DNA from: Alphaproteobacteria bacterium
GTDB taxonomy: Bacteria; Pseudomonadota; Alphaproteobacteria; UBA6615
DNA length: 64,000 nucleotides
Assembly: GCA_965261975.1 (NCBI GenBank)
Contig: CBDHEC010000056.1
Location: 64,001-128,000, forward strand
Reading direction: 5' to 3'
The position numbers were made by a program, and so were the translations under genes. This document shows, in pieces, positions 26,593 to 43,232 of the stretch (positions within the stretch are counted from its first letter, which is position 1; the number at the start of each line of letters is the position of its first letter). The notes beneath the pieces were generated by a model that saw only the letters and a program-made list of their open reading frames with translations, did not search any database and was not told the origin of the DNA.

Positions 26593-26668
<76 letters not shown>

Positions 26669-39481: not shown

Positions 39482-39874
39482 ATGACCGCAAAACTCCGAC
39501 ACTTTGCCCTGTCCGTTCCTGACCCCCAGAAGGCTGCGGCGTTCTATGAGAATGCGCTGGGCATGACCCGGGTGGGCGAGAACGACCATCCCGGCGCCAC
39601 GGCGGTGTATCTCACCGACGGCACGGTCAATCTGGCATTGCTGCGCTACAAGACCGAGGAGGCCGCGGGCGGCGACCCGGAAAAGTTCGGCGTGCATCAC
39701 TTCGGTTTCATCGTCGATGACGTCGAGGCCGCCCAGGGCGAGATCGAGGCGGCGGGCGGCAACTGGCTGATGGGCGAGGCGAAGGACGCGGGCGCGTTCT
39801 ACGAGATCAAGTACCGCGACCCGGACGGGGTGATCTTCGACATCAACGAGGGCGGCTGGAAGACGGAGGGGTAG
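39482..39874 (+). CDS. VOC/glyoxalase family protein
   Basis: LRHFAL.V.D, YLTDG.VNLAL, HHFGF.VDD, DPDG..FD. Confidence 0.9.
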   Translation: MTAKLRHFALSVPDPQKAAAFYENALGMTRVGENDHPGATAVYLTDGTVNLALLRYKTEEAAGGDPEKFGVHHFGFIVDDVEAAQGEIEAAGGNWLMGEAKDAGAFYEIKYRDPDGVIFDINEGGWKTEG

Positions 39875-39888
39875 GGCGTTTGGATGCT

Positions 39889-40215
39889 CTAGTTGATGAA
39901 CTTTAGCCCAAACAAGATCTTCAATATCTTTTGAACATTTTTTCTACAGGCATCTACATCTGCGTCTGAGACAGTAGTACTTGCTCGTTCATGTATAATT
40001 TTGTTTCTCATTTCATAATAGTGTTTGGCTTTTTCTAGTAATTCATCCGGAATATCTATTTTTGACGATACTTCTTTTATTACTTTGTGACGGCTTTTAA
40101 ACAAATCCCTGATTCGACCATCGGAGTATTGCTGCTGTGGAAAGAGGTCAGATCGGTGGACTATGAACTCTTTGAGAGAGATTTCGAAATTGCTGTCGAG
40201 CAAAATTAACGACAT
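39889..40215 (-). CDS. HEPN-like domain, in-frame C-terminal continuation of the GHKL ATPase gene
   Basis: Helical-looking, LLDSNFEI..KE and RNKIIH (Rx4H); same frame as 40237-41487, separated by one TAG. Confidence 0.6.
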   Translation of the reverse strand: MSLILLDSNFEISLKEFIVHRSDLFPQQQYSDGRIRDLFKSRHKVIKEVSSKIDIPDELLEKAKHYYEMRNKIIHERASTTVSDADVDACRKNVQKILKILFGLKFIN

Positions 40216-40236
40216 CCGGTTTCTGGTATCAAATTT

Positions 40237-41487
40237 CTACCTTGAAACGACATCCACAGCGCCAATTGCTTCAATGAGACCCAGTGTCCAAGGCATCTTG
40301 TCGAGCTGCTTTTTATTCTTTTCCCTCAGGTGTTCGATCTGTTGTTTTCTTACCTTCGGTAGAGGTGGAAGGCTGATTTTCTGACTATTTGTTATTTGAG
40401 CTTTTGGGATTTTTGTAATCTTACCTTGCGTGTGTCTAAACACCTTGGCGTCCCACTCATGCTTAAGTCGCCGTGAGAGTTTTGAAAAATGAGCTACGAG
40501 TTGGATAAGGGTTGGTCGTATTTTTTGGAATGCAAGGTGATCGTAGTTGATCCCATTCTTGCTGCTGTTCCAGGGCATCAAAATGGCTGGCCCTTCTAAC
40601 CTCACGATAACGCGGCACAGAGAAGCATCGGGATGAGGTACTCCTGCCTCGGAAGTAACAAAATATCCCACTTCTCGTGTTCTCAGTTCCTTAACTATCA
40701 TCCTATTGTTACAATAAAAGTAAACGCCATAATTGTCTGCATCTGGTTCACGGTCTTTTATTAGGCCAGCAGTAATATCGGCTGTAATATGCTGACTATC
40801 ATTTAGAGGTATTTTGATTTTGCAGTTTTGAGGTGCGTATGACGGTGGGTAAGACCAGTTGTCGTATTTTGTTTTTTTTATCTTTGTCCCATTTACGACT
40901 AGGGAGCATTTTGAGCCGAGGAAGTGAGAGTATGTTTCACCCAAATGTCTAATAATCTCTGGTTCGTCGGACTCATCGAAAGTCTTTCTTAGGTTCGAAA
41001 TATGAACTTGTGTTGTGCCTGCAGAGAGATTTGGAATCTCGAATGCTGCGATTTCCCAGTCATTCGTTTCTAGCCAATCATCTTCGATATCTACTTGAAA
41101 ACTTGAGCCTGATTTAGGGCGCGTCTTAATCTGGATGGTGCGACCTAACGCAACTCCTGCTCGCTTACTCCCAACACCAAAAATTCCAATCGATTGAGCG
41201 TTCGGATCGTTGCCGCTGCCACCTGGCGCGACTAGGAGCCTCAGATCACTTTGTTTAACGCCCCCCGCATTGTCGGTTACGGTGATCGTCTGGTGATCGG
41301 AATCTAGTACTACATTGATCTCCAGTTTCTTCTTCTGGTTTCCAAGCAGCCAAATATCGAACGCGTTGTCGACTAATTCACACAGTCCAGTTTTTAGGTC
41401 GTAGTCAGCGATTATCGACCAAAACATTCTTTTTTCGGGAGTCGCATCGATCGGTGCAATTTCCGTTTTTCGAGTTACAGCATTCAT
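40237..41487 (-). CDS. MORC-type GHKL ATPase on an AT-rich islet, interrupted by TAG at 40237-40239
   Basis: ELVDNAFD, TDNAGG, IGIFGVGSK, GT.V GHKL boxes; YGVYFYCNNRMI S5-like segment. Confidence 0.8.
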   Translation of the reverse strand: MNAVTRKTEIAPIDATPEKRMFWSIIADYDLKTGLCELVDNAFDIWLLGNQKKKLEINVVLDSDHQTITVTDNAGGVKQSDLRLLVAPGGSGNDPNAQSIGIFGVGSKRAGVALGRTIQIKTRPKSGSSFQVDIEDDWLETNDWEIAAFEIPNLSAGTTQVHISNLRKTFDESDEPEIIRHLGETYSHFLGSKCSLVVNGTKIKKTKYDNWSYPPSYAPQNCKIKIPLNDSQHITADITAGLIKDREPDADNYGVYFYCNNRMIVKELRTREVGYFVTSEAGVPHPDASLCRVIVRLEGPAILMPWNSSKNGINYDHLAFQKIRPTLIQLVAHFSKLSRRLKHEWDAKVFRHTQGKITKIPKAQITNSQKISLPPLPKVRKQQIEHLREKNKKQLDKMPWTLGLIEAIGAVDVVSR

Positions 41488-41861
41488 GGGGGACCCCGAA
41501 CTTCAGTGCTGTGAAAGCGTTGCGATAGTAAGAACGTGAACACAACTTTATCGAGAGTTTCGATTCCTGAATATCCAGAGTAGGTCGTATTCGAGCTCCC
41601 ACCAACCCAAATTCCTCTAGCGAAAAGTGCTGCATCGGGCGTCGGCTGCGAGCGTCTCAGCCAATTCGATACCGGACACGAGGGCGCCGAAGGGGCCGTC
41701 TGGCGGATCGACGGAGAGCTTGCTCATACACCGATACTAACACCGACAGACACCGCCGGTTCGCCCCCCGAACTTCAACCTGTCGCCGGGCGTTTCCCTG
41801 TGTGGGGTGGTCGCGGTAGTCTGGTGCCAACAAACAAGATTACCTCCCGGGAGTAAAGTTG

Positions 41862-43232
41862 ATGGCGCGCACATTGATCAAGGGCGGCTGGGTCGTGTCG
41901 ATGGACGATGCGATCGGCGATATTCGCGGCGGCGACGTGCTGATCGAGGACGACCGGATCGTCGAGGTCGGCCGCAACATCGACGCCGGCGATGCGGAAG
42001 TGATCGACGCGTCCAACATGATCGTCAGCCCCGGCATCGTGAATGCGCACGAGCACACCTGGCAGACCGGGGTGCGCGGGGTCGTCGCCGACTGGACGAT
42101 GTTCGAATACTCCACCCTGATGCACGCGACGTCGGTGCCTCACTTCACGCCCGACGACATCCGCCTGGCGAACCTCTGCGGCGCGCTGAACCAGATCAAC
42201 TGCGGCAGCACCACGCTGTTCGACTGGCATCACTGCAACGCCACGACGGATCACACGGACGCCGCGATCGACGCGCTGGAGGAATCGGGCATCCGCGCCG
42301 TCTATGGTCATGGCCAGACCAAGACCGCGTCCAAGCCCGGTGAGCCGCCGTTCAACGAGACCCCGCACTCGCGCGAACGGGTCGAGCGGCTCCGCAAGGG
42401 GCGGCTCGCTTCGGACGACGGGCTGATCACCATGGCCATATGCATCCAGGGGATGGGTTTCTCGGTCTGGGAATGCTTCGAGCACGACGTTCGTCTGGCC
42501 CGGGACATGGGCCTCTACTGGTCGAACCACACGGGTGCACAGGGAATTCCGCTGTTCTCCGAGGGTTCGGTGCACAAGCTGAATGATCTCGGCCTGCTCG
42601 GTCCGGATGCCGACTTCGTCCATGCGACCAACCTGACCGACGACGAGATGAAGATGATCATCGATGCCGGCGGCTCGATCACCGTCGCGGCCGAGTGCGA
42701 GAGCAACTTCGGCCATGGCAACCCGGTGACCGGCCGGGTGCTCGGTTTCGGCGGTACGCCGGCCTTCGGGGTGGATCTGCAGTCGAACGTCTCCGGCGAC
42801 ATGTTCTCGGTCGTGCGTTATGCGCTGCAGTTCGAGCGAGCCATGTACACGGACGATCGGCCGCGCCCGACCAAGGCGATGCCCGAGCATCTGAAAACGC
42901 GTGTCGCGCTTGAATGGGCGACGATCGACAACGCCCGGGCGCTCGGGCTTGACGACCGGATCGGCTCGCTGACGCCCGGCAAGCAGGCGGACGTGATCCT
43001 CGTGCGTGGCGACGACCTCAACACCTGCCCGGTGCATGACCCGGTCCAGACGCTGATCTTCATGGCCACGCCGTCGAACGTGGACACGGTCTTCGTCAAC
43101 GGCGAGGTGAAGAAACGCGACGGCAAGCTGGTCTACCCGGAAGCCGCGCTGCGTGAGACCCTGGGCAAGCTCGCCGAGTCCGGCCGCCGTATCCTCGATG
43201 CCGCCGGTGTGATGCAAGCGGCGGCGGAATAG
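41862..43232 (+). CDS. Amidohydrolase family protein (deaminase/chlorohydrolase-like)
   Basis: PGIVNAHEHTWQ (HxH), FVHAT, FGVD, ATIDNARALG, GSLTPGKQAD. Confidence 0.9.
   Translation: MARTLIKGGWVVSMDDAIGDIRGGDVLIEDDRIVEVGRNIDAGDAEVIDASNMIVSPGIVNAHEHTWQTGVRGVVADWTMFEYSTLMHATSVPHFTPDDIRLANLCGALNQINCGSTTLFDWHHCNATTDHTDAAIDALEESGIRAVYGHGQTKTASKPGEPPFNETPHSRERVERLRKGRLASDDGLITMAICIQGMGFSVWECFEHDVRLARDMGLYWSNHTGAQGIPLFSEGSVHKLNDLGLLGPDADFVHATNLTDDEMKMIIDAGGSITVAAECESNFGHGNPVTGRVLGFGGTPAFGVDLQSNVSGDMFSVVRYALQFERAMYTDDRPRPTKAMPEHLKTRVALEWATIDNARALGLDDRIGSLTPGKQADVILVRGDDLNTCPVHDPVQTLIFMATPSNVDTVFVNGEVKKRDGKLVYPEAALRETLGKLAESGRRILDAAGVMQAAAE

Follow-up and report, generated by a model that had tools for sequence, protein, structure and literature searches.

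A GHKL-HEPN candidate defence gene interrupted by a single in-frame amber codon in an alphaproteobacterial genome: a probable recent pseudogene

The window analysed here is a stretch of 64,000 nucleotides from an Alphaproteobacteria bacterium of the lineage UBA6615 (GenBank assembly GCA_965261975.1, contig CBDHEC010000056.1, positions 64,001 to 128,000 of the forward strand), and the subject of this report is one gene on its minus strand (41487..39889), predicted to encode a GHKL ATPase fused to a HEPN domain. The gene consists of a 416-codon open reading frame (ORF), an in-frame TAG (amber) codon and 115 further codons, and amounts to 532 codons when read through. An earlier note made on this DNA from the letters alone had described two ORFs in one frame, with TAG at codon 417 and a total of 532 codons, which the reading of the frame reproduces exactly. 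The proximal ORF starts with an ATG at 41487 and its product ends in ...DVVSR, the part distal to the TAG reads KFDTRNRMSLILLD...RNKIIHER...FIN, and past the natural terminator the frame continues for 29 further codons to the next TAG and for 63 to a TGA. The first in-frame ATG downstream of the amber codon is codon 425 (40213-40215), and the 21 bases upstream of it are devoid of a GGAGG-like (Shine-Dalgarno) stretch, as the note had also stated; its description of an AT-rich islet is borne out by the G+C (GC) profile, which runs at 0.37-0.50 over about 39900-41550 and at 0.61-0.73 in the flanks. The assembly (3.03 Mb, 59 contigs, 94.6% complete) contains one copy of the gene, and a promoter and terminator scan gave a number of sites not above that of shuffled sequence.

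The continuity of the frame on both sides of the TAG is not a matter of chance, because the read-through protein matches whole proteins of about 530 amino acids (aa) over 96-100% of its own length, with expectation values (E) down to 1e-227. The protein, with X at the break, was searched against a 5.8-billion-protein collection, and among the 8000 candidates scored at least 1543 matches (clusters at 90% identity) reached E<=1e-3. One of the best 120 listed is the window's own 416-aa product, and the other 119 are proteins of 511-596 aa, 54-62% identical to the query and covering 96-100% of it. At the column of the TAG, 24 aligned homologues have Gln in 22 cases and Ser and Leu in one each; in the 117 homologues of 500-560 aa the residues are Gln (109), Ser (3), His (2), Leu (2) and Lys (1). 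Since Gln stands in place of the TAG in most homologues, a CAG-to-TAG change is the simplest history of the codon. A stop at codon 417 was found in none of these 117 homologues and in none of 80 genome loci, the latter being the best 80 of 157 stretches encoding relatives, found when each species was represented by a single genome. The distal part of the window copy retains 27/27 family-invariant columns. The fusion of a GHKL to a HEPN part proposed in the earlier note holds, homologues being continuous and none being seen to end at the TAG, and so does its simplest reading, that of a nonsense mutation disarming a toxin, given continuous homologues with Gln at the stop column.

The family is large, sparse and cross-phylum, and is made of continuous proteins of about 530 aa. 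The lineages represented among the best 80 loci include Alphaproteobacteria, Acidobacteriota, Bacteroidota, Verrucomicrobiota, Chloroflexota and Armatimonadota, and a profile search of a 1.84-billion representative protein library returned 2848 proteins at E<=1e-3, 200 of them at E<=1e-30. The distant matches of 620-810 aa have the N-terminal module alone in common with the family. A Pfam scan of 17 distant proteins sharing this module assigned a Shedu SduA_C nuclease to one, helix-hairpin-helix domains to three, and left the C-termini of the others, many of them proteins of 620-780 aa, unassigned. The N-terminal module of the SduA_C fusion (P0256) is the same one, matched at E 2e-38 from profile position 13 to 322; in P0255, P0267 and P0270 a C-terminal HHH_5 helix-hairpin-helix domain lies where the family has HEPN. 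Such varied C-termini on a shared N-terminal part describe an ATPase module with interchangeable C-terminal domains.

The ATP-binding domain of this module was recognised over aa 30-149 by two Pfam models, PF13589 HATPase_c_3 (35.4 bits, cutoff 25) and PF02518 (30.1 bits, cutoff 26.4). Three motifs, E37-x3-N41-A-x-D44, D72-x-G-x-G76 (with G75) and G101-x2-G-x-G106, are invariant in 25/25 aligned sequences, and we take them, in definition and numbering, to be the ExxxNAxD, DxGxG and GxxGxG motifs of the GHKL literature. When the family profile was compared with Protein Data Bank (PDB) sequences, MORC3 and MORC4 ranked first, weakly (E 1.3e-3 to 8.6e-3). An AlphaFold model of the whole protein reached a predicted local distance difference test (pLDDT) value of 80.7, and its residues ~1-410 were matched by Foldseek to MORC3 (5ix2_B, E 4.5e-13, 412 columns) and MORC2 (9cdh_B, E 7.7e-13), the alignments with MORC3/MORC2 ATPase modules spanning 407-423 columns at E 4.5e-13 to 1.9e-12. 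The N-terminal and middle domains of Hsp90/TRAP1 nearly tie with them (about 1e-12). On the model, the module is a GHKL domain followed by a transducer/S5-like domain of GHL type, and the term MORC-type used in the earlier note is a fair description of its nearest structures, Hsp90/TRAP1 being almost equal. The eukaryotic MORC2 and MORC3 are the best structural and PDB sequence-profile matches of residues ~1-410, whereas identity to them is 13-17% and the family is without CW, coiled-coil and chromatin-reader domains.

The last ~135 residues were modelled separately from 35 diverse sequences, and the model is a six-helix bundle with a pLDDT of 94.6. A VIA search of 48,161 representative chains returned nearly exclusively HEPN domains at the top, led by 2hsb (Z 12.2), 5yep_B (the SO_3166 toxin, 11.6), Csm6 (6tug, 11.5) and HI0074 (11.3) and followed by more HEPN toxins, the sacsin HEPN domain, AbiA, HepS, AbiV and LsoA; the HEPN entries among the best matches have Z values of 12.2-9.2 over 110-130 aligned residues, while values of about 13 can arise by chance among helical bundles, and the fold evidence is therefore valid solely together with the two HEPN motifs. 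These motifs, defined in PMC3710099 as Rx4-6H and Ex3[KR], are both present in the distal part, E435/K439 (Ex3K) being invariant in 35/35 C-terminal domains and R494/H499 (Rx4H) in 35/35 domains and in 25/25 full-length sequences; the RNKIIH to which the earlier note had pointed is the latter motif. An atlas search gave RnlA/LsoA clusters as leads, with scores of 0.86-0.87. The chance level of Z is one of three results that count against a HEPN assignment: Foldseek with the HEPN model also placed HEPN toxins on top, at E 0.14 or higher, and none of the 35 domains reached the cutoff of a Pfam HEPN family, the best sub-threshold models being HEPN_RiboL-PSP (3/35, E 1.6e-4) and HEPN_LA2681 (1/35, E 0.051). 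A PDB sequence search with the HEPN profile gave nothing meaningful. With invariant Ex3K and Rx4H motifs, and a distal part carrying all family-invariant residues, the assignment made in the earlier note is upheld, and the C-terminal ~135 residues are, as modelled, a HEPN domain and a predicted RNase. The TAG lies between the helices 399-415 and 422-444 of the full model, thus after the first HEPN helix and ahead of both catalytic-type motifs. A fragment from Afipia is labelled 'Apea-like HEPN domain' by one source.

As for the island in which the gene lies, the wider neighbours are of metabolic type, with YCII, cupin and glyoxalase genes to the left and amidohydrolase and MFS transporter genes to the right. 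In 7/7 same-genus loci aligned by blastn, the glyoxalase and amidohydrolase genes neighbour each other and the island DNA is absent; the alignments end at 39859-39874 on the left, where the last ~170 bases of the glyoxalase gene are 89-96% identical in the seven loci, and restart at 41756-41849 on the right. The spacer between the two genes measures 34-122 bp in six of these relatives and holds a 0.95-kb gene in the seventh (genome G002), which is intact on the minus strand (557-1591 of locus L009) and which, from its motifs, we take to be TauD/TfdA-like. The remnant found in the window (Table 1) shares 14/24 residues with the N-terminus of the G002 gene (pairwise E 6e-8), and since only the first 36 codons are kept, the foreign DNA replaced most of a TauD-like gene. 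The variation of the spacer within the genus points to replacement by insertion plus deletion. No match to the island DNA was found in 40 related genomes, and the island protein found nothing in the same 40 except one 25%-identical GHKL protein, matching in the N-terminal module only. This GHKL protein lies at another locus of the closest relative genome (L091, G011:C2:121655-122854), in an open frame of 459 aa. The island is without integrase, tRNA or convincing terminal repeat, the sole tRNA of the window being at 26593. A perfect 12-nt direct repeat occurs at 41494-41505, just upstream of the start codon, and at 41766-41777, within the native spacer that precedes the amidohydrolase gene; insertion microhomology may explain it, or coincidence (a rough estimate expects about 0.15 such repeats in 2.25 kb). 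With a GC of about 0.42 against 0.65, and absence from relatives, the islet is in all probability a single gene acquired recently and horizontally, as judged from composition and comparison.

Table 1. Coordinates of the gene, its motifs and its surroundings within the window
Feature	Position	Strand	Basis
Low-GC insertion, strain-specific and putatively foreign, with the GHKL-HEPN gene and the 5' remnant of the displaced gene	39875..41755	.	GC, blastn of relatives
Proximal ORF, 416 codons, covering the GHKL ATPase, the S5/transducer-like domain, the helical linker and helix 1 of the HEPN bundle	40240..41487	-	
GHKL (Bergerat-fold) ATP-binding domain, aa 30-149	41041..41400	-	Pfam and invariant motifs
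Amber codon 417, sole disruption of the gene	40237..40239 (plus strand: CTA)	-	Frame and homologue alignment
Distal 115 codons: remaining HEPN domain with both catalytic-type motifs; untranslated if the TAG terminates	39892..40236	-	
Ex3K motif of HEPN domains, E435-I-S-L-K439	40171..40185	-	E and K invariant in 35/35
Rx4H motif of HEPN RNases, R494-N-K-I-I-H499	39991..40008	-	Alignments
Natural terminator of the gene, likewise TAG	39889..39891	-	Frame reading
36-codon 5' remnant of a TauD/TfdA-like gene	41623..41730	-	Similarity to the L009 (G002) gene
Left flank: glyoxalase-family gene, native, GC-rich, stop codon TAG	39482..39874	+	Pfam Glyoxalase, E 1.4e-19
Right flank: amidohydrolase gene, native	41859..43232	+	Pfam Amidohydro_1, E 2e-24

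In other genomes, the gene has a lower GC than its flanks at most of the best 80 loci, and no conserved partner gene was found among them, the biggest neighbour cluster being present at 6/80 loci. At 5-6/80 loci (L013, L020, L021, L026 and L050) the gene lies within a type I restriction-modification (R-M) operon, in the order hsdR-hsdS-gene-hsdM in L021 and L013, the genes of L021 being some 10-20 bp apart. At another 5/80, all in Bacteroidota (L059, L060, L063, L064 and L065), it is found downstream, and on the same strand, of genes for a DndD-like AAA_23/SMC protein and a DndE + HerA/FtsK-like ATPase, an arrangement that suggests, from gene order, that the gene is linked to a modification or restriction module of phosphorothioate type. 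Of the 152 ORFs adjacent to the gene in the best 80 loci, 76 were scanned, from 39 loci, and 17 of these 39 have a neighbour of R-M, nuclease, helicase, toxin-antitoxin, integrase or TIR type. Carriage by phages or plasmids was considered as a habit of the family and dropped, mobile carriage amounting to one weak partial phage match and seven plasmid records, of which one is full-length and frameshifted.

Broken copies of the gene are found elsewhere in the family, at 11 of the 78 informative loci, all of them broken otherwise than at codon 417. Six carry frameshifts (near residues 75, 258, 306, 322, 345-422 and 380), two have in-frame stops elsewhere, one has lost the HEPN domain by a deletion after residue 413, one is truncated at residue 324 and one is without its 5' end. 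Broken copies are known from isolate genomes too (L017, L064 and a Rhizobium leguminosarum plasmid), the last being a 36%-identical copy with a frameshift near residue 220-233 on plasmid p_1 (L090, CP050515.1, 3998-5564). This megaplasmid copy is annotated as two hypothetical proteins and has defence genes around it, its neighbours encoding a DNA methyltransferase, a paired AAA ATPase and endonuclease, and proteins of the DUF4365 and SEC-C types. Database fragments ending at 410-418 had suggested a break hotspot at the ATPase/HEPN junction, an idea that was abandoned because non-homologous tails place the breaks from 109 to 478, without clustering. Among three rearranged database forms of the family (P0235, P0238 and P0229), one has an HsdS-like (type I) N-terminus that runs straight into the HEPN part (family position 418), one has lost everything between GHKL residue ~46 and the HEPN domain, and one carries poly-alanine inserted within the first HEPN helix.

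The earlier note had also raised, as a speculative alternative, control by readthrough, in which the amber codon would be a conditional gate and the HEPN toxin would be made upon suppression of the TAG, for example by a phage-borne suppressor tRNA; if this were true, the gene would be a suicide device triggered by the suppressor tRNA. The position of the stop just ahead of the catalytic helices of the effector fits such a gate, as does a downstream frame that is intact and keeps all invariant residues. The stop is nevertheless peculiar to this lineage, the 117 homologues and 80 loci having none at that column, and where other copies are broken, frameshifts, deletions and stops located elsewhere are responsible. 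The CUA anticodon, moreover, is present in 0 of the 44 tRNAs detected in the genome, where, out of 1303 open frames with 400 codons or more, TAG ends 494, and since the gene's own terminator is a TAG, suppression would lengthen the C-terminus by 29-63 residues. Neither of the signatures of programmed recoding looked for, a conserved stop among these homologues and loci or a suppressor tRNA among these tRNAs, was found, and the readthrough idea, with continuous homologues lacking the stop, no CUA tRNA and TAG as a common terminator, is not sustained; we regard it as extremely improbable.

It may also be asked whether the two parts work separately, the 416-aa ATPase being retained for a role of its own and/or the HEPN part being re-initiated at the ATG of codon 425. 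The ATPase ORF is intact with every GHKL motif present, the ATG lies eight codons past the stop, and 57 short HEPN-only ORFs exist in databases, all of which would suit a functional split. Against it, the bases upstream of codon 425 hold no Shine-Dalgarno-like sequence, and a product started there would be without the first HEPN helix and without the invariant T421 and R424; each cluster of the short HEPN forms comprises 1-4 sequences from 1-4 contigs, short contigs being frequent, one form is a frameshifted Afipia copy, and HEPN-only clusters so few and tiny do not constitute a conserved split lineage. The breaks in the family are, in addition, dispersed along the whole protein. A split gene is accordingly held to be very unlikely, and inactivation of the gene is retained as the preferred explanation.

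The architecture was compared with those of known systems. According to Iyer et al. (2008, PMC2292703), the paraMORCs are R-M system proteins that combine GHKL with S5 and carry a C-terminal nuclease or TIR domain of varying kind, and a MORC-specific sequence motif unites the MORC family. The fusion of Ymh-type HEPN domains to paraMORCs, for which a PrrC/RloC-like role was proposed, was put forward computationally by Anantharaman et al. (2013, PMC3710099). The proteins studied here resemble this set in placing an Rx4-6H HEPN domain C-terminal to a GHKL+S5-type ATPase, and in that some members (5-6/80) lie in R-M neighbourhoods. They differ from it in that most loci are without an R-M partner and that none of the 35 domains matches PF09509 (Ymh) at E<=10, the 25 families (of 28) listed for them at that threshold not including it; an NCBIfam scan of the window's part likewise gave no match to a ymh model. 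The present family may be identical with the Ymh-paraMORC set of 2013. The earlier note had been unable to match the gene to a named system, which agrees with the lack of a PADLOC-DB 2.0.0 system match for the read-through protein; the class of architecture had, however, been predicted in print in that 2013 paper (PMC3710099). The GHKL(paraMORC)-HEPN architecture is thus an already predicted one, and the family that has it is mostly free-standing and uncatalogued in PADLOC-DB 2.0.0. Searches of the literature on GHKL/MORC/paraMORC-HEPN proteins and phage defence turned up no experimental test of a GHKL-HEPN protein.

The nearest tested relatives are relatives in architecture. The GHKL-type Shedu of Vibrio cholerae (VcSduA/paraMORC3) has been tested as an anti-phage protein that requires both its ATPase and its nuclease residues (PMC12137116). 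Like members of the present family, it is a single polypeptide that opens with a GHKL ATPase, continues with a clamp-like domain and ends in a nuclease effector, whereas its effector is a PD-(D/E)xK DNase and the one predicted here a HEPN RNase; the window protein gave no SduA_C/DUF4263 match in Pfam or PADLOC scans. Tiamat (TmtA) is reported as a single-gene GHL ATPase defence protein whose ATPase activity is required (bioRxiv 10.64898/2026.09.30.754977). It is similar in its single gene, its middle domains and its C-terminal nuclease, and dissimilar in its size of about 1600 aa, its sacsin/Hsp90-like ATPase and its PD-(D/E)xK effector (NOV_C/DUF3883 nuclease), and the PADLOC TmtA model PDLC03966 matched over 72 residues only (E 1.6e-3, 14.3 bits). 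PrrC, a guard of the type I R-M operon in which it is encoded (PMC3710099), shares with RloC and with the present family an NTPase regulatory domain and a C-terminal HEPN RNase in one protein, and the EcoprrI locus has the same embedding in a type I R-M operon as a subset of the family (L021 and L013 among them). The NTPase of PrrC/RloC is of ABC/Rad50 type and the one here of GHKL type, and these proteins are therefore analogues, alike in architecture and context only, and not homologues. HepT/MntA, SO_3166, Csm6, HepS, AbiV and LsoA have the helical bundle (Z 12.2-7.7) with Rx4H and Ex3K in common with the C-terminal domain; identity to it is, however, 6-16%, and here there is no cognate MNT antitoxin or CARF domain, the regulator being the fused GHKL ATPase. 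Given that the ATPase module is common to the phage-defending GHKL-type Shedu, the family is a reasonable candidate for an RNA-targeting counterpart.

By analogy with ATPase-effector defence proteins, the GHKL-transducer module of an intact member would dimerise on ATP and sense a phage-derived cue or, in the copies embedded in R-M operons, might alternatively respond to the loss of the R-M partner. The activated module would then license the HEPN dimer for the cutting of RNA (tRNA or mRNA), which would halt the infected cell or the phage. That the intact family is a genuine single-gene GHKL-HEPN abortive-infection defence system is somewhat more probable than not. In the present genome, a single CAG-to-TAG change just past the first HEPN helix would end translation; as the product would stop at residue 416, the HEPN effector could not be made, and at most an ATPase fragment would result. 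The window copy deviates from the family at 2/117 proximal and 2/37 distal columns that are at least 95% conserved (rank 50 and 16 of 117), and since its decay, apart from the stop, is within the spread of the family, the inactivation would be recent. We therefore consider this copy to be, with high probability, a recent pseudogene, that is, a disarmed toxin, of a horizontally acquired GHKL-HEPN candidate defence gene, produced by a CAG-to-TAG mutation and joining many other members of the family that were broken independently.

Several points speak against this interpretation. The neighbours in the window are metabolic genes and do not form a defence island; RNase activity, ATP dependence and phage defence are, for the whole family, inferred by analogy; the absence of a second lesion is expected equally of a functional, selected stop; and the TAG rests on one low-depth assembly, in which an error could lie. 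This last point leads to a further explanation, that the TAG arose as an error of sequencing or assembly, or stands for a minority allele fixed in the consensus, and that the gene is intact and functional. The division of an incomplete assembly into 59 contigs agrees with an error, and so does the lack of decay elsewhere in the gene; the one public run that holds the stretch has a word depth of 5.65, and as it is possibly the source sample of the assembly, it does not confirm the TAG independently. The contig of that run was nonetheless built independently and is identical over 39600-41900 (2301 bases, 0 differences), consensus substitution errors are rare at such depth, and broken family copies are common, isolates included. 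An error at the TAG is thus deemed very unlikely, if slightly less so than a functional split. Taken together, these data give a deflationary result for the locus itself, a plain and recent nonsense mutation carrying no recoding signal; for the family as a whole, in which about one copy in seven is broken, they fit an effector that is costly, toxic and easily lost.

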